Source: an uncultured delta proteobacterium
GTDB lineage: Bacteria > Desulfobacterota > Syntrophia > Syntrophales > UBA2185
Assembly (NCBI GenBank): GCA_963705275.1
Contig: OY970063.1
Span: 1,329,039 to 1,393,038, forward strand
Length of the DNA stretch: 64,000 nucleotides
Direction of reading: 5' to 3'
In this document: positions 1,419 to 11,291 of the stretch, piece by piece
How positions within the stretch are numbered: position 1 is the first letter of the stretch
Layout: each line of letters starts with the position of its first letter
Position numbers and translations under genes: made by a program
Notes under the pieces: model-generated
What the model was told of the DNA's origin: nothing
Databases searched by the model: none
The model's input: only the letters and a program-made list of their open reading frames with translations

Positions 1419-3164
1419 ATGAAAAAGAACATACCTTGGATTGTAATTTTGATTGTTTCTGCAATATTCCTTGGCAATACGGAATATGCCGGGAGCGTTC
1501 CGCCGGAAGAGAAAGCACCTCAGGCGGCTCCTGCAGCCAAGGCACAGGGCGCAGATTTCGGCTACCTGGAGAATATAATATTGGACAGAATAAACGGCAA
1601 AGAGCGCCTCACCATTGTTTTATCCAAACAATCAAGTGTCGCTGTTGAAGCCATAGGCGGCAATGACCTGTTGGTAAAGATGACAAAGGTGTTTGTACCT
1701 GAGGAGCTCAAACGCACCCTGGGTGAAGGAAAGCTTTCCAATATAGTAAGTGTCGTGCCTTCCCAAAAGACAGTTGATGGCGAGCAATGGGCACTAATCA
1801 CTATAGCTTTAAGAGAACGCGTCCCTTACAAGGTGAATCAGGAGGGGCAAAATGTCCTGATTGACTTCGATGTAAGAGGCTTAGCTGTTAAGTCGCCTGC
1901 AGCCGTGCAGAAAGCTGCGGAAGTTACTAAAGAAGATATGGCCCAAAGGCAGGTTAAGCCTCCCTATGGCGGTCCGACGATATCGCTCGATTTTCAGGAT
2001 GCAAGTATTAAGACTGTCCTCAGATTGCTTTCTGAAGTCGGAGGGGTCACAATTGTATCCGGAGATGACGTCAAAGGGAATATGACCGTGTACATGAAGA
2101 AGGTCCCCTGGACTCAGGCTCTTGATACCATTTTAGACGTCCAGGGTCTTGTCAAGAAACAGATGGGTGATGTTATCAGTGTCATGACCGTCGAGAAAAT
2201 GAAGAAAGACGAGGCTGACCGGAGGGCGGGCGAGGAAGATCGTCTCAAAGCGGAGGTTATTGCGAAGAAAGCGGAACAGGATCGCATGGAAGAGAAAGGA
2301 AAACTGCGACAGATTTCTATAGAAGCAAAAATTGTGGAGGCCCAGGATGATTTCATCAAAAACATCGGAGTGCAGTGGGGCGGCTCATATTATGGTAATT
2401 TGGGAAGCTATCCCTATGCCTTGACGGCAGGCACAAATCCCGGCACAAACGTTATTGGGAATCGTCTTCAAACGTGGGGATATCCAGATGGCATTCCAAT
2501 TCGGAATGCGGATGGAACTTTACTTCAGTCAGCTGCCGTTAATATGCCAGGCACGACATTTGGACCGACATTCGGTCTCATCATGGGGGGAGCCAATCTC
2601 GTTCTCGAAGCCCAGCTTCAGGCCCTCGAGACGAACAATACAGGTAAGATCATTTCATCGCCAAAAATTACCACCATGGATAATGTTAAAGCTACGATAA
2701 AACAGGGACAGGAAATTCCCTACATTACAATAGACAAAGACGGAAACAGGAGTATTACCTTTAAGGAGGCCGTCCTGAAACTGGACGTCAAACCTAAGAT
2801 TACGCCCGATGGCACCATTTCCATGGAGATTAAAGCGACAAATGACGCTGCAGACTATGCCACGGCTGCACTGCTCGGCGGAAACCCGCCCATTAACAAG
2901 AGCGAGGTTGAGTCTAAGATCGTCGTACGGGACGGAGATACGGTAGTCATCGGGGGGATCCTTAAGACATCGGATCAAAGAAACGAGTCCGGCGTTCCCT
3001 GGTTTATGAAGATACCTGTCTTGGGCTGGTTATTCAAAACTGAAGGCGTAACAAAGAACCGAAGACAGCTCATGGTATTTATCACCCCGAGGATAATAGC
3101 AAAAGAAGATGTAGTCATCGACAAAGTCGAAATGCCGAAGAGGCCCGAAAAACCTAAGAGCTAG
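1419..3164 (+). CDS. pilQ: Type IV pilus secretin PilQ
   Basis: 581 aa with GAGGAG as RBS and a signal peptide. It has a secretin N-domain (ISLDFQDASIKTVLRLLSEVGGVTIV), a K/E-rich linker and a C-terminal secretin signature (GVPWFMKIPVLGWLFK...RQLMVFITPRII). Confidence 0.9.
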   Translation: MKKNIPWIVILIVSAIFLGNTEYAGSVPPEEKAPQAAPAAKAQGADFGYLENIILDRINGKERLTIVLSKQSSVAVEAIGGNDLLVKMTKVFVPEELKRTLGEGKLSNIVSVVPSQKTVDGEQWALITIALRERVPYKVNQEGQNVLIDFDVRGLAVKSPAAVQKAAEVTKEDMAQRQVKPPYGGPTISLDFQDASIKTVLRLLSEVGGVTIVSGDDVKGNMTVYMKKVPWTQALDTILDVQGLVKKQMGDVISVMTVEKMKKDEADRRAGEEDRLKAEVIAKKAEQDRMEEKGKLRQISIEAKIVEAQDDFIKNIGVQWGGSYYGNLGSYPYALTAGTNPGTNVIGNRLQTWGYPDGIPIRNADGTLLQSAAVNMPGTTFGPTFGLIMGGANLVLEAQLQALETNNTGKIISSPKITTMDNVKATIKQGQEIPYITIDKDGNRSITFKEAVLKLDVKPKITPDGTISMEIKATNDAADYATAALLGGNPPINKSEVESKIVVRDGDTVVIGGILKTSDQRNESGVPWFMKIPVLGWLFKTEGVTKNRRQLMVFITPRIIAKEDVVIDKVEMPKRPEKPKS

Positions 3165-3238: not shown

Positions 3239-4024
3239 ATGCGAAAGAGCATGAACCGGTTAAATATAATAATACGCAGTGTTCTTATGACATGCGCTCT
3301 TGCCATCTCGGCATGTGGAACAAGCCCATGGAATCAGGAACAGGCAGATTCCCACATCAATGTCGGGGCTGCCTTTCTGGGATCGGGACGATCTAATGAT
3401 GCCTTAAAGGAATTTTTGGAGGCGGAGAAGCTCTCGCCCCAAGATCCCAAGGTCCATTATTATATGGGTATTTCGTACCTCGACAAAGGGCTCAATGACA
3501 ACGCCATCGCTGAATTTAAGAAGGCCCTGTCCCTGAAGCCCGACTATTCGGAGGCTCACAATTTTCTGGGCGTGATCTATCGCGATAAAAAACAATGGGA
3601 CATGGCCATTGATGAATTTAGAAATGCCCTTGCCAATGTGCTTTACGAAACCCCTGACAAGGCAGTGTTCAATATGGGAACGGCCTATGACGGGAAGGGG
3701 GATTATGACAAGGCCCTGAAGATGTACGAAGAGGCGAAGAACAAGCAGCCGCATACAATCCCCGCCCCTGTGATAGACCTTTACATCGGCAGAACCTATT
3801 ATGCCCAGGGAAATTTGGAAAAGGCGGTTAGTTATTTTAAGGCATCCCTCAAGACTGCCCCTTCTTTATTGGAATCCCACTACTGGTTAGGGCAGTGCTA
3901 CATCAAACTGCGTGAACCGGCAAAGGCAAGAGCAGAGTTTAAGACCATCATCGATATAACACCGGATTCGGGATTGGGGATAGAAGCCAAGAAGAGCCTC
4001 GATTCCATGACGTCTTCCCGCTAG
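3239..4024 (+). CDS. TPR lipoprotein, PilF/PilW/Tgl-type pilus secretin assembly factor
   Basis: 261 aa with a lipobox-like ALAISAC followed by about six TPR units (AxxxFxxALxxxPxxxxA periodicity). Size and position directly after pilQ match PilF (Pseudomonas) and PilW (Neisseria). Confidence 0.6.
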   Translation: MRKSMNRLNIIIRSVLMTCALAISACGTSPWNQEQADSHINVGAAFLGSGRSNDALKEFLEAEKLSPQDPKVHYYMGISYLDKGLNDNAIAEFKKALSLKPDYSEAHNFLGVIYRDKKQWDMAIDEFRNALANVLYETPDKAVFNMGTAYDGKGDYDKALKMYEEAKNKQPHTIPAPVIDLYIGRTYYAQGNLEKAVSYFKASLKTAPSLLESHYWLGQCYIKLREPAKARAEFKTIIDITPDSGLGIEAKKSLDSMTSSR

Positions 4025-4289: not shown

Positions 4290-7200
4290 TTACTGTATTC
4301 TCCGGTCCCTCCAGTTTAAGATGTTGACCCTGTTGGAGAGCCCCGGAGGATTGAAGTTCACCCGCTGCGTGTTACTCCCCCCAGCTCCACCAGTGCTTGT
4401 TGTAACATAGAGATCAGCGACATTCGACCCTGACCCGGGGGGCTTTACTGAAATAACGGGGGCAGAGGCTATTCCGACCCCTATTGACATACTTCTTGAC
4501 CCACCTGAAAATGCGCCGGAACCGAACGGAAAGTTAATCGCATAAAGGTATGCATTCCCGCTCTGTGCGCAGGGGCTACTGCTTATAGGCGAGTAAGACG
4601 TGAAATACACCACGCCGCCAAATAGGGCGGAATCCGCCAATACCTTCTCCCCCGTCCCAGACAAGCTGATGTAAAACCCCTTGTTGAGGGAAGTAGTTTG
4701 ATCATACGTCGAACCAGCTGATGAGATATCATCCATATTGCTGATAAACCAGGTTGTGGTGCGGTTATTGTCTTTCAATGCAAACAATCTCCCCCGCCCG
4801 GCTGTGCTGGCGGGATCCGCTTTATTCCCCGTACCCCACAAGACCCAGAGATTCCCCGCCCCGTCCCTGGCAACAGAAGGGATCGTATAGATAGGGCGCC
4901 AGGCCGGATCTACTGTGGAACTGTCGAACAAGAGGCCCCCGCTCCAGTCGGAAGCGGAACACCCTCCGGGCAAAGCAGACATAATCGCCGTGCAGAACTT
5001 GAGCCGCCAGACGTTTCCACCCATATCTCCAACATAGACAGTATCGATGAAGCCATCATTATCTGTATCCACAATGGCAGGAGCAGCCGGTATGCCGTAT
5101 ATCATTTTCGCTGTGTTATCGGCATATGTATAACTCCAGAGTATTTGCCCATTACTCAAGTCTATGACAAAAAAGCCCTTCCCCCTGCAGTCACATCCTG
5201 CGCCACAACCGCCTCCGCCGGAGCAGTCCGATCCACTGTAGCCGGCGCCGACAAACCCCACCCATTTCTCCTCGTTGTTGATCATTACCCTGCCTGTCAT
5301 CACTTTGCTCCAACTTTCATCAGACAGATAGGGGGCATGTGCTGGGTTTATCGCGTTGGTACCGCCAAGGTGCCACATAAAAGTCGGGCTGAGGGAATTA
5401 TTGAGGCCTAAGGCATAATAGCCGCAATAATACGGATAACTGGTGCTGTAGAGGGAACTAAATCCGGAATCACAGTATTGAGATGAACTCCATGTCATGG
5501 GGGTGCCGCCCCTCCCTTCTCCGAAGATCAGTATCGTCTTCCAGTCCGATGCATTCTTACTTGTTCCGTCTTGACCTGACGGTCCCAGCCACACGTCAGC
5601 TACCGTCACGGCCCCGTCAACAAAATACTGGTGGCTAAGTGCTGTGGGATTAGTTTGATGGGAAATGTATTTCAGCTTTGGCAGATGGCTCGGCGGGATG
5701 AAGCTCCACGCCTCTGAAAGATTGCTGGTTTTAAAGGCGTGTAGCTGACCGTCGTTAGCCCCGACAACGATTACTCGGCTCCCGATAGCAGAAGTGCGGA
5801 TATGGTTTGTCCGGTGTGTTGCAAAGGCGTTGTTTTGATCACGCATGTCGTCGAAGAAGACCGACGGCGTTCCTACAGTGATCGGTGTTGACCGGAATAC
5901 ATCGCCCAGCTTATAGACACCCGCAGTCGTGCTGTCCGGGTTATAGGAGGAATCTCCCCGGATGTATCCCACGATGTTATCTCGTTCTGAATCTGTGGTC
6001 ACATCAAAATATCCTCTTGTAATACTTGTCGTGAAGCTGGTCATCGAACCGGCAATACATGTCTTGATTGTCCGACTGGATTCACTTGCCGCTTGGAGAA
6101 TGGCCCCGGCATCCCCCAGATTTGAACCTATTGATCCATCAGTGTTGATCTGGTACTTTTCCAGGTGACCATGCCAGAATGGATCACCCGCCACGGGCTC
6201 GAAGGAGGCTTCGTAGAGAAAATTCTCGTCAGTGGTTCTGGATGACTGAACGGAGGCCTGCGTGAAGGAGTAGGTCGCCGCTCGGATGGTGTTAAATGCC
6301 GTTTTCAGGGCGCTCGCCAACGCATCCGCGTCAGCAGCAAGAAAGGCGTAACCGGAAAGCGAGGTGTTCCCCGGGTCTAGAGATGGCGCATAAAACTGCG
6401 TATAAGTTGTACCTTCGCACGTTCCCGACAACATAGTATTCTTGAACGTGGTTGTAACAGGCTCAGCGGGAGCACAACTCGAAACGCCGGGAGGATAGCA
6501 CGCAGTCGGGTTACTGTCCACATCGCAGCACGGTGCCGTTACGGGGGGTGTCGCTGTTAGATCGCAGCCTGTGACTATATTGTAGCCTGTCGTGCTGCCC
6601 GTGTTCACTACGTTAGGATTATCCGTTCCTCCGTAATATGCCATCCAGTTAAGGGTATTCTGGAGATAGGTGGGCATAGCTGATCCGAATCCGATGACAA
6701 AGACCTTATATCCTGCATCGGCTAACGCCTTCGTTTGGGCCACGACATTTCTTCTCCCTTTAAATCTCCTCGAATAATTGGCTGAGTCTCCGGAATTTTT
6801 ACATTCCATCCCATCGCCTCCGCATGCATACGTGTCCGATCCGTCTGAAATGACAATAAGGAACTTCTTGCGGCAGTCCTTCGCGGCGTCTCCCGCTTTA
6901 TTAGCATCGAGATACAGTTTAGCCTCGTTCAGCCCCGATGCCAGTGGTGTTCCCCCATTGGCGCTGTAACCGACAATACATTCGCTGCCGGAACCTGAAC
7001 AGGTGCCGCTCCCGCAGCTGCTAACTGTCGAGTTGCACTGAGTGGAACTGCCACAGTATATCCTGCTGTACTGTGACCCGATAGGACACATGACTTTTAC
7101 GTTTCCGCTGCTCCAATTCCCGGCCGTATCGTCACCGTCCTTGAACCTCATGAACCCTATCCTGACGTTGAGGCTCGATGCGTCTGCGCTATTAATCTTA

Positions 7201-7532: not shown

Positions 7533-8015
7533 TTACCTCGACATGGTTGACATTTCCACGGGACCATAGCCGACCCCCACGCCGATAGTCACCTGTGTAT
7601 TATATTCTGCATTTTGTCCGACCACATCCATATTGTATCTGCTCTGCCCCCAGCTCTGCCCACCACCGATGGAGTAGCCTGTCAGCGGCAGCATTATGGG
7701 GCCAACAGTAGGGCGTGTGGAAGGATAATTAATCCTATAACTCGACACACCATCGGCCCTGTTGGTAGTCTGAGGGACAAGGATGGGGTTCTGGGGATCG
7801 AATGTCTGTGACAGGCTGTTGATGCCTGTATCGGCGGCAGCAAGAGCCCTCTTTTCTCCGACAATTTTCATGCTCACCCTGATGTCCTGCGTCGATAGGG
7901 AAATAACCAGCATTCCCAGGGCGAGAAGGATCAGGCAGGCCATGATTGCCGCGATGAGGGCGAATCCAGCCTCGGAATTCTTCTTGGAGAGCGCTCTTAG
8001 TATATTCTTATCCAT
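7533..8015 (-). CDS. pilX: Minor pilin PilX-like
   Basis: 160 aa with a PilX_N-type N-terminus (GFALIAAIMACLILLALGMLVISL, no Glu5). It sits between pilW and pilY1. Confidence 0.6.
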   Translation of the reverse strand: MDKNILRALSKKNSEAGFALIAAIMACLILLALGMLVISLSTQDIRVSMKIVGEKRALAAADTGINSLSQTFDPQNPILVPQTTNRADGVSSYRINYPSTRPTVGPIMLPLTGYSIGGGQSWGQSRYNMDVVGQNAEYNTQVTIGVGVGYGPVEMSTMSR

Positions 8016-8028
8016 GTTTGCTCCAGGA

Positions 8029-8796
8029 TCAATTGTTTCTCAGGGTCTCACGGGTCTTATAGATCATCCTCCGCGTGAGTTTAGTGCTCGTATCGATTTG
8101 TTCCGTTTCAATTGCCAGAGTAATCTCTACCATTCTTATATCTGTGGAACATCCCGGCATACACACCCTTCCTGCGCCTGCTGCAAAAAGGAGCTCGACC
8201 CCCTGCCCGTCAAAGTAACGGAAGACCGGAACGTTGACATCGGCATCAGCATTGATAATTCTTACCGTGCGGGGACGGCCGCTCCCTATGATATCCCCAA
8301 GAAAGGGTTGGGCTCCGCCGCAGTTTGTCTCTCTTGTAATATACCTGTCATTGCCTGTCTGCACAAAGTTATACCTGATGATCTCGTTGCTTTCTGCAGC
8401 GGTGCCGATGAGAAGGCCGTTGCCATCAGGATTGCCGTTCGCGTCCAAACCGCCAGAGACGTCCATTTCCACGGTGATCGAATTTCGCTGGGCCTCCTGT
8501 ATTCCCCTGAATGTTTGATTTGCGGACTGTGTCGTGCAAAAGTTGGCCCCTCCGGGATTCCCGTCACCCCGCCAGATGGTCGTCGAAAACGATGGATTAT
8601 AAGAGGCCATCTTAATCTCCAGGGCCATAATCTCAAGGGCGCCTCTTACATCCTGCTGAGCCGTAACCTTTCTCTCTATGCCCCCGGATGACCTCGATGC
8701 CGACTCGATGGCCATGCCGATAGCAAAGATCATAATGAGCGAGACAGCAATGGCTATCACGATCTCGACAAGTGTAAATCCTCTCACGTCATTCAT
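8029..8796 (-). CDS. pilW: Minor pilin PilW-like (prepilin-type N-terminal cleavage/methylation domain)
   Basis: 255 aa. The N-terminus MNDVRG/FTLVEIVIAIAVSLIM has the G|FTLVE prepilin motif. Size and gene order match pilW. Confidence 0.65.
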   Translation of the reverse strand: MNDVRGFTLVEIVIAIAVSLIMIFAIGMAIESASRSSGGIERKVTAQQDVRGALEIMALEIKMASYNPSFSTTIWRGDGNPGGANFCTTQSANQTFRGIQEAQRNSITVEMDVSGGLDANGNPDGNGLLIGTAAESNEIIRYNFVQTGNDRYITRETNCGGAQPFLGDIIGSGRPRTVRIINADADVNVPVFRYFDGQGVELLFAAGAGRVCMPGCSTDIRMVEITLAIETEQIDTSTKLTRRMIYKTRETLRNN

Positions 8797-9779: not shown

Positions 9780-10650
9780 TGAGGTCTAACAGTTCCGCCT
9801 CGGGTAAAGCTCCTACTTTGAGCCTGCCATCCGGTAGTATCATTGAGGGCGTTCCTCCTATGCCGAGTGAATTGGCAAGCTTTACAGAATTTTCTATCTC
9901 GGCGGTAGCGCACTCCGTCTTCGGTATCTCCTTCTTTTCGAAGTTCTCTTCCAGCATTTTCAGGGATTTATTGCAGACGATGCTTTTTGCCTTCCAGTAG
10001 GCGTCCTTATGAAACTCTAAGGGCAAAAACTTGATATAGAAGGCTATGTCCTTCCTTTTGGCTACGATTTGTTTCATCGTCTGGTGGAGCTGTCCGCAGA
10101 AGGGGCAATCAGGATCTGTAAATACAACTATTTTTTTCGCAGCACTCTTCTCCCCCAGAACAATGGCATCAGTCAGCGGGATCTTCGCTATGTCAATCCT
10201 CTTCTTGTCCTGGATCCTGTGAATAGCCTCCATGGTCTTGTTGGTCATGGTAGACACTTCCACCAAAGAACCAAGAATGAGGTAGTTCTTATTGACGTCA
10301 AGATAAAATATCTTCGTCTGCCCCACGATATCGATAACTACTTCACAAACGCTATTTATAGGACTTTCTGCGATGCCTATTACATTCGCGTCGGGCACGT
10401 TGAGCTTCTTTAATATCTCCTTCATCTCTCCCCCGCCCAAGGAGACGCAATCTTTCCTTGCCTGGCCCGCTTCTGCTCCCCACGCGATGTTATATCCCGC
10501 AGTAACAGAGGTAAAAAGCAATGCACATGAGAGACATAAAAAAGCAGGAAATAAGCTTTTTCTTTTCAATGCGCAACCTTTCTTGCTGTTTTTTTGACGC
10601 TTTCTTGTCTCATATTTTCTGAGGGAAATCAAGAAATCCATTCCCGGCAA
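9763..10650 (-). CDS. DsbC/DsbG-like periplasmic thiol:disulfide isomerase
   Basis: It has a thioredoxin-fold CxxC (FTDPDCPFCGQLH) and a DsbC-type N-terminal dimerisation domain (SPINSVCEVVIDIVGQTKIFYLDVNKNYLILGSL). The likely real start is TTG at 10569, with AGAAAGG 7 nt upstream, giving MKRKSLFPAFLCLSCALLFTSVTA as signal peptide. Confidence 0.75.
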   Translation of the reverse strand: MPGMDFLISLRKYETRKRQKNSKKGCALKRKSLFPAFLCLSCALLFTSVTAGYNIAWGAEAGQARKDCVSLGGGEMKEILKKLNVPDANVIGIAESPINSVCEVVIDIVGQTKIFYLDVNKNYLILGSLVEVSTMTNKTMEAIHRIQDKKRIDIAKIPLTDAIVLGEKSAAKKIVVFTDPDCPFCGQLHQTMKQIVAKRKDIAFYIKFLPLEFHKDAYWKAKSIVCNKSLKMLEENFEKKEIPKTECATAEIENSVKLANSLGIGGTPSMILPDGRLKVGALPEAELLDLIDGKK

Positions 10651-10754
10651 ACGCTGAATGGGCGAGGTATAATAATGTGGCAGGGCTCAGACGGTGCAGA
10701 GTGGCACCTCAAAAGAAGGGCCGCAGGCTACTCCAAAACAGAAGGTCATTTCAA

Positions 10755-10845
10755 TCGTCCGGCAACCCTGCCGCCATATCCTCTTTAAAAGAGGATTTAG
10801 GCCAGTGGCTTTACGTCCCGTCCTTTCGGACAGTTTGCCTTTTTC
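10755..10845 (-). promoter_or_regulatory. c-di-GMP-I (GEMM-I) riboswitch aptamer
   Basis: The minus-strand RNA is GGCAAACUGUCCGAAAGGACGGGACGUAAAGCCACUGGCCUAAAUCCUCUUUUAAAGAGGAUAUGGCGGCAGGGUUGCCGG. It matches the conserved GEMM-I blocks as I recall them from Vc2 (GGCAAAC / GNRA-capped hairpin / GGGACGcAAAGCC / GGCCUAAA / GCGGxxGGGUUxCCG). A GAAA tetraloop and a CCUAAA..UAUGG receptor are both present. Confidence 0.8.
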
Positions 10846-11291
10846 AGGACTCTTTCATGATTTCAAAGATTCTATAATCTCTTCAAGCAATTCTTATATG
10901 CTCGATTTCTTTATACCACATCTGCAATAAAAAAAAAGGGAAATTTTTAATCTTTTTCCATATGCAAATTTAGAAGAATGTATATAGCGATGCAATCACT
11001 ATGCCATTTATGTTCTCATACATGGATATGCTGTAACGCCTGTGATTATCATAAATTAGATTCGCCTCATAAAATGAAGGGGGAAAACTTTTTCTTAAAT
11101 ATTGATAAAAATCGGTGATTTTGACCAATTATAGTTGTGAAACTCATCTGAAGATTAGCCTATAATTACTGATTTTTCCCCATTACAACAGCTTGGATTT
11201 CCTGCTTGACACACTATGGGTGCTGTGTTACAGCTCACACCTGTCCGGGCTACTGCAGTAAAATTCGCTAATATTCAAGATACATGACCAT

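Follow-up and report, generated by a model that had tools for sequence, protein, structure and literature searches.

GEMM RNAs were tied to the pilus genes pilM, pilO, and pilQ of deltaproteobacteria at their discovery in 2007 (PMC1950547). They contain two adjacent hairpins with an AAA linker, the first of which combines a 2-bp and a 6-bp stem, an internal loop of 3 nt, and a GNRA loop, and an architecture of "GAAA loop plus receptor" has been described for them; in the usual design, the competing structure takes the 3' side of the second aptamer hairpin (PMC1950547). In class I aptamers, G20 recognizes one guanine of cyclic di-GMP (c-di-GMP) and C92 pairs with the other, while the GEMM-Ib RNAs that sense cyclic GMP-AMP (cGAMP) carry an A at position 20, and wild-type Vc2, which has G20, discriminates against cGAMP (PMC6140456). 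The tfoY gene of Vibrio cholerae has four promoters, two of which are located within or 3' of the Vc2 aptamer, are independent of it, and give most of the tfoY mRNA (10.1101/617340). In this study, we analyzed a GEMM-I element in a 64-kb stretch of DNA (the window) from an uncultured Syntrophales bacterium, where it precedes a six-gene operon of pilus genes. The products of this operon include minor pilins and PilY1, by which type IVa pili are initiated and capped. Judged from sequence and folding, the element is probably a functional class I c-di-GMP riboswitch in the 5' leader of the operon, with a downstream segment, strand X, as its competing strand.

Materials and Methods

All coordinates refer to the window, in which the leader and the operon are on the minus strand. 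The whole 64 kb was searched with cmscan against Rfam 15, where the gathering score of RF01051 is 35 bits. The relatives comprised 80 genome loci with homologues of the DsbC-like protein, with homologues of this first gene of the operon from Syntrophales metagenome-assembled genomes (MAGs). A covariance model of our own was built from the closest aptamer loci and then run on the genome loci and on metagenomes. After the removal of duplicates, 42 distinct leaders from genomes and metagenomes were obtained, all of them from related Syntrophales MAG or metagenome contigs, and these are the basis of all leader counts. Column shuffles (500) and slid registers served as controls for the pair-cell statistics. 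RNAs were folded with ViennaRNA, and statements on promoters and start sites were derived from sequence patterns.

The GEMM-I Aptamer and Its Predicted Ligand

The original prediction had placed a c-di-GMP-I riboswitch ahead of the operon. The cmscan search confirmed this with an RF01051 match at 10849-10758 on the minus strand, which scored 80.8 bits against the threshold of 35 (E = 2.5e-14) and covered model positions 1-87 of 87 without truncation. It was the sole above-threshold Rfam match in the 64-kb window, and a permissive search of 10500-11100 gave nothing meaningful beyond it; a weak match to LOOT-RNA supports the receptor-hairpin motif only. The parts of the aptamer are as follows.

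10757 to 10850, minus strand: c-di-GMP-I (GEMM-I) aptamer including the short P1 helix (RF01051 match and pairing in the 42 leaders).
10850-10847 (GUCC) with 10760-10757 (GGAC), minus strand: P1 helix (paired in 98.8% of cells in the 42 leaders).
10839, minus strand: the G equivalent to Vc2 G20, model position 11 in the cmscan alignment, which separates c-di-GMP from cGAMP.
10833-10818, minus strand: first hairpin, CUGUCC/GGACGG, with the GAAA tetraloop at 10827-10824 (helix kept in 99.2% of cells, one covarying pair).
10774 to 10801, minus strand: second hairpin with the canonical 11-nt tetraloop receptor, CCUAAA at 10801-10796 and UAUGG at 10778-10774 (sequence and cmscan alignment).
10764 to 10772, minus strand: aptamer 3' strand A3, GGCAGGGUU, which is common to the second hairpin and the alternative helix.

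All sequence blocks listed earlier were found on the minus strand, including GGCAAAC at 10839-10833, GACGUAAAGCC, and GGCGGCAGGGUUGCCGG, and the type-1 GEMM architecture proposed for them was recovered with both its GAAA loop and its CCUAAA/UAUGG receptor pair. The first hairpin has a 2-bp GC/GU stem, an AAA internal loop, the 6-bp CUGUCC/GGACGG stem, and the GAAA loop, and is followed by GACGU-AAA-GCC. Across the leaders, 99.2% of the pair cells of the aptamer were kept, compared to 30-45% in slid registers. Moreover, three pairs were changed on both sides, in 18 cells, a level reached by 0 of 500 shuffles; as the sequences are close kin, the depth of this support is modest. The aptamer shows every computationally testable feature of RF01051 membership.

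The aptamer and the operon are on the same strand, and this 5' regulatory position, also part of the original prediction, is kept in at least 42 distinct leaders. Rfam found the aptamer in 11 of the 12 closest of the 80 genome loci. Our own covariance model recovered it from 14 genome loci whose DsbC is at least 61% identical and from the distant loci L048 and L075, and gave no match in the Smithella and Nitrospirota loci. The metagenome scan added 37 full-length copies at an equal distance from the gene. In the 42 leaders, the spacing from aptamer to start codon was always ~190 nt (up to ~210). In the window the aptamer ends at 10758, and the distances given before to the start in the open reading frame (ORF) track (10650) and to the TTG at 10569, which is 189 nt away, were found to be right. 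In L025, a distant deltaproteobacterial MAG, a GEMM-I RNA at 4713-4815 precedes pilD, a dsbC-like gene, and a minor pilin gene (4910-7141); its leader is ~95 nt long, is without a called terminator, and has a CU-rich stretch, CCCUCUCUCC.

The ligand was predicted from the specificity position. By our own count on the Vc2 sequence, model position 11 is G20, which lies directly 5' of the GC paired with GACGC, and the A47 equivalent is the first A after that GC. In this numbering, the equivalents of the ligand contacts G20, A47, and C92 are G10839, A10812, and C10762, and they are conserved in the relatives. The G20 equivalent is a G in 41 of the 42 leaders, the window included, and an A only in L009/L103. 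The A that is the hallmark of GEMM-Ib is absent from the window, which has G at 10839. Since the specificity position is a G, c-di-GMP rather than cGAMP is the predicted ligand. Sensing of 3'3'-cGAMP would be in keeping with many deltaproteobacterial GEMM-I RNAs, as 12 of 17 from Geobacter sulfurreducens bind cGAMP (PMC8835794), and the related lineage L009/L103 does carry an A at this position. However, cGAMP binders carry A and G20 in wild-type Vc2 discriminates against cGAMP (PMC6140456), and with G in the window and in 40 other leaders we regard cGAMP sensing as highly improbable here.

The aptamer of L009 (5713-5811; the L103 leader is identical) has an A for G at the G20 equivalent (GUCCUAAAAAAGCAAAC) and a lower Rfam score of 54.5 bits. 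Its anti-aptamer strand is degraded to AAAACUACC, with a duplex of only -11 kcal/mol. This lineage may represent a natural shift to cGAMP or to dual specificity; alternatively, its aptamer may be decaying.

A Competing Strand Downstream of the Aptamer

The leader between the aptamer and the gene contains the following elements.

10739 to 10747, minus strand: CU-rich segment Z, GACCUUCUG, just 3' of the aptamer, a candidate anti-Shine-Dalgarno (anti-SD) segment and the 5' arm of a small hairpin, H0.
10703 to 10722, minus strand: hairpin H1 (GGCCCU ... AGGUGCC), whose sequence varies between relatives and in which 3 of 5 pairs change on both sides.
10679 to 10693, minus strand: switching (anti-aptamer) strand X, in which CGUCU (10693-10689) pairs with GGACG, the P1 3' strand, and AGCCCUGCC (10687-10679) pairs with GGCAGGGUU (10772-10764).
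10638 to 10661, minus strand: hairpin H2 (CCAUUC ... GAAUGG) followed by the U-rich AUUUCUUGAUUUC, seen in minimum free energy (MFE) folds, a weak stem-loop without a terminator call.
10567 to 10582, minus strand: SD sequence GAAAGG (10582-10577) and TTG start codon (10569-10567), with the start aligned in 42 of 42 leaders.

The helix between X and the 3' side of the aptamer was present in the unconstrained MFE structures of the window and its relatives, which were 10-15 kcal/mol more stable than the folds with the aptamer enforced. It was also the RNAalifold consensus helix for the whole leader. The duplex energy was -27.0 kcal/mol in the window and -23.4 kcal/mol on average over the 42 leaders, compared to -13.1 kcal/mol with a shuffled partner, and the duplex was better than its own shuffles in every one of the 42 leaders. 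In the upper and lower parts of the helix, 92.8 and 87.8% of the cells were paired, respectively, against 35-50% in slid registers. A compensatory change was found in L082, where GGGCG:CGCCU stands for the GGACG:CGUCU of other leaders. We consider that the aptamer has a bona fide competing structure, predicted to be built on the 3' side of its second hairpin.

In two lineages, L004 (5730-5842; L089 is the same) and L094 (163-267), a ~32-nt deletion and junction mutations have removed the 3' half of the aptamer. In these, the otherwise invariant core of X, CCCUGCC, has acquired three substitutions while the neighboring elements are intact: the CU-rich segment, H2, the promoter-like element P2 (described below), and the SD sequence are kept. 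The candidate -10 of the upstream promoter is degraded. These lineages are a natural experiment that separates aptamer-dependent from aptamer-independent elements.

The original prediction had proposed another platform, a terminator or anti-P1 element made by the pairing of CCUGCGGCC (10727-10719) with GGCGGCAGG together with the U-rich CUUCUUUU. In the window, 8 of 9 positions are complementary and a U-rich tract follows; this helix is not conserved in the relatives. For the terminator or anti-P1 element CCUGCGGCCCUUCUUUU, 59.9% of the cells were paired over the 42 leaders, a shuffle-level value matched by 126 of 500 column shuffles, and one position pairs in only 1 of 42. Furthermore, close relatives carry CCUACGGCC or CCGACGGCC instead, the U-rich tract is located in the loop of H1, and the terminator scan makes no call. 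The segment 10727-10711 behaves in the relatives as the 5' arm and loop of H1. This earlier platform now has hardly any chance of being correct, and strand X is the competitor that we retain.

In the 42-leader alignment, H1 was paired in only 66.5% of cells, because its register shifts between clades. Its loop (10711-10717; UUCUUUUGA, UUCUACUGA, CUUUAUUA) is more conserved than its stem, which hints at a sequence-specific contact with a protein or with an RNA tertiary partner. H2 overlaps the region just upstream of the P2 -35. No intrinsic terminator was found by scan in the leader of the window, nor in the distant relatives L025 and L048.

Two further candidates in the leader were rejected. 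A leader peptide starting from AUGACC (10748) has a frame that is not conserved among the relatives, and its ATG is absent in clade B. A helix proposed by RNAalifold, in which the P1 5' strand would pair with GAUUU of P2, has invariant sides, is weak and G-U-rich, and was treated as spurious. In addition, the heptamer UUGAAAU flanks the aptamer, as CUUUGAAAUCAU before it (10862-10868) and as GAUUGAAAUGAC after it (10748-10754), and the upstream copy is nearly invariant among the relatives; GAUUUC, the complement of GAAAUC, occurs in two copies at the P2 -35 region.

Predicted Direction and Mode of Control

In the mechanism that we propose, transcripts from a promoter upstream of the aptamer (candidate -10 at 10874-10869) would carry the aptamer, and its 3' half (GGCAGGGUU..GGACG, 10772-10756) could take part either in the ligand-binding fold or in pairing with X (CGUCU..AGCCCUGCC, 10693-10679). 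Pairing with X would give a ~14-bp helix around two small hairpins. In the absence of ligand this helix would prevail, while binding of c-di-GMP would lock the aptamer and free X. The freed X and the CU-rich segment beside the aptamer would then lower access to the ribosome-binding site (RBS), turning translation OFF. By analogy with the mode reported for Vc2-tfoY, we weakly favor such a translational OFF switch and would place it a little short of an even chance.

Folding of the window with the aptamer enforced gave a structure in which Z pairs with AAAACAG..AAAGGU around the SD sequence. The accessibility of the SD sequence decreased from 0.61 to 0.38 in the window, and the nearest relatives behaved similarly. 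The best downstream partner of X was the SD/start region in ~24 of the 42 leaders and other sites in the remainder, and the duplexes of Z or X with the SD region were somewhat better than those with shuffled partners. In L005 and L006, a C-G pair is changed to U-A in a compensatory way, where X (UGCUAU) pairs with GUAGCG beside the SD sequence.

The same pairing was far stronger in another clade. The Z:SD duplex is strong only in clade B, with -16.8 kcal/mol. In this clade (L012, 4238-4551; L108, L104, and L111), the ~18 nt after the aptamer, UAUUAAAAUUCCUCCCC, read by eye as a near reverse complement of the stretch from SD to start, GGGAGGAUAUUUUGAUA. In L012, ~16 of 18 positions are complementary, also read by eye, and the Z:SD duplex has -24.0 kcal/mol. 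In addition, the SD region of clade B repeats the GCAGGG of the aptamer. The clade B leader looks like a clear translational design, which would be much weaker in the clade of the window.

A number of observations weigh against the translational reading, and some against the platform as a whole. The mean accessibility of the SD sequence over the 42 leaders shifted only slightly, from 0.37 to 0.30, and a comparison of three constraint regimes gave no more than a small, inconsistent effect. In the clade of the window the Z:SD duplex has -8.4 kcal/mol, which is about the shuffled level (~-8.3 kcal/mol), and the X:SD duplex of the window is weak (-6.5 kcal/mol). Cognate SD pairs were no better than non-cognate ones (-10.4 vs -10.2 and -11.3 vs -11.4). 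ViennaRNA folding leaves ligand binding, tertiary contacts, pseudoknots, and co-transcriptional folding out of its model. Moreover, the conservation and shuffle statistics are inflated and the independence of the leaders is overstated, because they share ancestry; the X helix is nearly invariant on both strands, so true covariation in it is sparse.

The same competition could also act on transcription. Here, the A3:X helix would be an unusual branched attenuator or terminator that acts just after X at low c-di-GMP; the ligand would prevent attenuation, and c-di-GMP would add transcription onto the basal activity of P2. A competitor of the aptamer 3' strand occupies the usual position of a terminator 5' arm in GEMM RNAs, where the ligand raises expression (PMC1950547), and the GEMM-Ib switch of Geobacter pilM operates likewise (PMC9262584). 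In the window, A and U make up 90% of the 10 nt that follow X (ACAUUAUUAU, 5 U in 8), relative L115 has U8 directly after X, and a two-promoter layout would make biological sense if passage from the upstream promoter to P2 were conditionally blocked. However, a canonical terminator-type platform was rejected: the 5' arm is right, but the terminator scan makes no call, and at least 5 U in 8 follow X in only 6 of 42 leaders. The arms are separated by ~65 nt that include two hairpins, a kinetically unfavorable arrangement for termination, and the tails of clade B are C/A-rich. A transcriptional ON switch is unlikely in our estimate, while the translational OFF switch keeps our weak preference.

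Control through Rho or RNA decay has to be considered as well. The ligand would expose a C-rich, G-poor stretch around X for Rho loading or RNase entry, or, in an alternative form, the folded aptamer would shield a short upstream RNA from 3' degradation, as Vc2 does. Nucleotides 141-200 of the leader contain 22 C vs 10 G, the mean composition between X and the -35 is 25% C and 16% G over the 42 leaders, and the scan found no canonical terminator. Vc2 controls the stability of a small RNA (sRNA) that ends at the P1 stem, with no termination in vitro (10.1101/617340). Nevertheless, the C-over-G bias is moderate, and it is partly forced because X must complement a G-rich aptamer strand. We rate this route as improbable, below a transcriptional ON switch.

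Promoter-Like Elements Upstream and Downstream of the Aptamer

Three promoter-like elements were recognized in the region.

10910 to 10920, minus strand: promoter candidate P0 with the extended -10 TGTGgTATAAA, inferred from a pattern match and partly conserved as TATGgTAATAT.
10869 to 10874, minus strand: candidate -10 of the upstream promoter P1, TAGAAT in the window and TATAAT in most relatives, recognized in the alignment ~19 nt ahead of the P1 helix.
10604 to 10632, minus strand: P2, a sigma-70-type extended -10 promoter-like element, a conserved pattern between the aptamer and the gene.

P2 consists of a -35, TTGATT (10632-10627), a 17-nt spacer, TRTG (10614-10611), and a -10, GACAAG (10609-10604), which is GATAAA in most relatives. 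The spacing of the motif TTGATT-N12-TRTG-N-nATAAn was invariant in 42 of 42 leaders, in the lineages with decayed aptamers, and in L048 and L075, and the T, T, G, and A at -17, -15, -14, and -11 were invariant. The -10 is generally (G/C)ATAAA-like, and it is weakest, GACAAG, in the window and in L081. The element was absent upstream of 63 DsbC homologues without the riboswitch. We take the pattern to be that of a sigma-70 promoter with a TRTG extended -10. Two other explanations of its conservation were rejected: an N-terminal coding extension is ruled out, as 22 of 42 leaders have in-frame stops, and an RNA hairpin (UUUC/GAGA) is, by eye, not maintained in clade C.

P2 would start aptamer-free transcripts ~28 nt before the start codon, and the riboswitch would then modulate only the share of transcripts from the upstream promoter; this we hold to be more probable than not. 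In the lineages that have lost the aptamer, the -10 of the upstream promoter is degraded to TGTAAA or TGTAAT while P2 is intact. As P2 survives where the aptamer has decayed, part of the transcription of the operon probably bypasses the switch. The simplest reading is that the upstream promoter with its riboswitch is an accessory input, and that P2, which would be blind to the riboswitch, gives the remaining transcription of the operon; V. cholerae tfoY is a direct precedent for such a layout. For part of the transcripts, the start may lie downstream of 10755, which the original prediction had named as grounds for giving up its claim. Its further statement that c-di-GMP gates the operon is probably too strong, because the aptamer is followed by a promoter-like element that is strictly conserved, and the feedback loop through PilY1 that it proposed is speculation transferred from Pseudomonas.

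Against this role of P2 stands that the promoter scan makes no P2 call and that the -10 of the window is degraded to GACAAG. The P2 architecture has zero matches elsewhere in the window, an uninformative outcome that gives it no corroboration, and we infer its promoter function from the consensus and the conservation pattern. The pattern TRTGnTATAAT is not enriched in the window, with 7 matches compared to 6.3 expected. For the upstream promoter P1, no convincing -35 was recognized.

If P2 were taken to its extreme, the operon would be transcribed essentially only from it, and the aptamer RNA would be a separate short sRNA or a buffer for c-di-GMP without any effect in cis. The conservation of P2 and its persistence after aptamer loss would fit this, as would the Vibrio system, where tfoY mRNA comes mostly from riboswitch-independent promoters and a stable P1-Vc2 sRNA accumulates (10.1101/617340). 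However, the distance and linkage between aptamer and operon are strictly kept in the 42 leaders, with linkage also in L048, L075, and L025; X and the whole 190-nt spacer are conserved, and the scan found no terminator between the aptamer and the gene. A purely separate RNA is very unlikely on these grounds, and we keep a riboswitch that acts on the upstream transcripts.

The Pilus Operon and Its Start Codon

The six genes of the operon are on the same strand, with overlaps or gaps of at most 13 nt, and their order is identical in clade B (L010) and on a related contig.

10569-9763, minus strand: DsbC/DsbG-like periplasmic disulfide isomerase with a CPFC motif, 268 aa (Pfam DsbC_N and Thioredoxin_2).
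9779-9273, minus strand: FimT/GspH-like minor pilin (Pfam N_methyl and GspH).
9295-8810, minus strand: pilin-like gene (Pfam N_methyl).
8796-8029, minus strand: pilin-like gene (Pfam N_methyl).
8015-7533, minus strand: PilX-like gene (weak Pfam PilX_N match).
7523-4290, minus strand: PilY1-like protein, 1077 aa, the last gene of the operon (Pfam T4P_PilY1 beta-propeller, 3e-13).

In the DsbC-like protein, C155-P-x-C158 is invariant, and its homologues are named as DsbC family proteins of Syntrophales. The products of the operon are a type IVa pilus priming/tip complex and a dedicated folding enzyme.

The TTG at 10569, which the original prediction had preferred as the start codon, is upheld by the alignment: it coincides with TTG, GTG, or ATG in 42 of 42 leaders, has the SD sequence 7 nt upstream, and is followed by a signal-peptide-like N-terminus, and in-frame stops occur just upstream of it in 22 of the 42. 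Many database entries of the family have 292 aa, because gene callers start at the in-frame ATG at 10641; this ATG is not conserved as coding, and the conserved start at TTG 10569 gives the 268-aa protein.

The operon faces convergent plus-strand genes for PilO (189-893), PilP (865-1416), the PilQ secretin (1419-3164), and a TPR protein (3239-4024), and therefore the window holds a type IVa pilus cluster. PilM and PilN would fall beyond the left edge of the window. Opposite the pilin-like gene 8796-8029, the plus strand has a 302-aa ORF (7783-8691), in all likelihood a spurious shadow ORF.

Discussion

Any standard Rfam annotation finds this aptamer, so the value of the discovery lies only in the regulon and in the architecture of the platform. 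What is less ordinary is the regulon itself, a priming/tip complex with a DsbC-like enzyme, and the long, terminator-less platform with a predicted nested promoter. A literature search for c-di-GMP riboswitches with minor pilins or PilY1 gave no description of this association in the one collection covered, which is not proof of novelty. If the element is functional, the mRNA that encodes the minor pilins, PilY1, and a dedicated disulfide isomerase would be a direct target of c-di-GMP, and the link between GEMM RNAs and pili, known from pilMNOPQ and pilA1, would be extended to the priming complex. The hosts are syntrophic, uncultured bacteria of peat and sediment, in which pili are thought to be important for cell-cell contact.

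Put together, the leader could be a three-part module of an upstream promoter, a GEMM-I aptamer with a long-range anti-aptamer strand, and a nested extended -10 promoter, in which c-di-GMP, instead of gating the operon by way of a terminator, tunes only one class of transcripts by long-range RBS masking or by Rho or decay while P2 holds a floor of the tip complex. We offer the complete module tentatively and think it somewhat unlikely to hold in every part. If true, it would be a Vc2-like multi-input design outside Vibrio that serves pilus biogenesis. Natural variants sample both the loss of the aptamer (L004, L094) and the switch from G20 to A (L009), and the set of intact leaders, aptamer-lost leaders, and one lineage with A at G20 is a natural test of a terminator-less riboswitch with a predicted nested promoter.

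Among the known systems, Bc1 of Bacillus thuringiensis is also a class I aptamer with an unusually long platform, which has alternative structures and a DNA-level regulator site inside it (PMC11218506). The platform of Bc1 contains two canonical rho-independent terminators, however, while none were found here. The Cdi-2-4 riboswitch upstream of pilA1 in Clostridioides difficile shares the direct control of type IV pilus genes by a c-di-GMP riboswitch (PMC6366702). Unlike the RNA of the window, its aptamer is of class II and folds in an unrelated way, it belongs to a Gram-positive host, and it controls a major pilin as a terminator-based ON switch.

The GEMM-Ib RNA of Geobacter metallireducens pilM is likewise a deltaproteobacterial aptamer of the GEMM-I fold on type IV pilus genes, and in it the aptamer and a helix that competes for the 3' part of the aptamer are mutually exclusive (PMC9262584). 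The pilM RNA, whose specificity position is an A, senses cGAMP, has a compact canonical terminator, and switches transcription ON, whereas the RNA of the window has G20, a 190-nt platform, and no terminator, and precedes a minor-pilin/PilY1 operon, not pilMNOPQ.

Vc2-tfoY is similar in its family (RF01051), in G20, in the GAAA loop and receptor, and in a long leader without a recognized terminator. It has promoters both upstream and within or 3' of the aptamer, with some transcripts escaping the riboswitch; in the window, the corresponding downstream promoter is predicted from conservation. For Vc2, an OFF mode has been reported, in which an anti-RBS element follows the aptamer (10.1101/617340). 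The target of Vc2 is a regulator of motility and the type VI secretion system, while here it is a pilus priming operon, and unlike Vc2-tfoY, the leader of the window has a discrete and strongly conserved strand X located 65 nt downstream of the aptamer.

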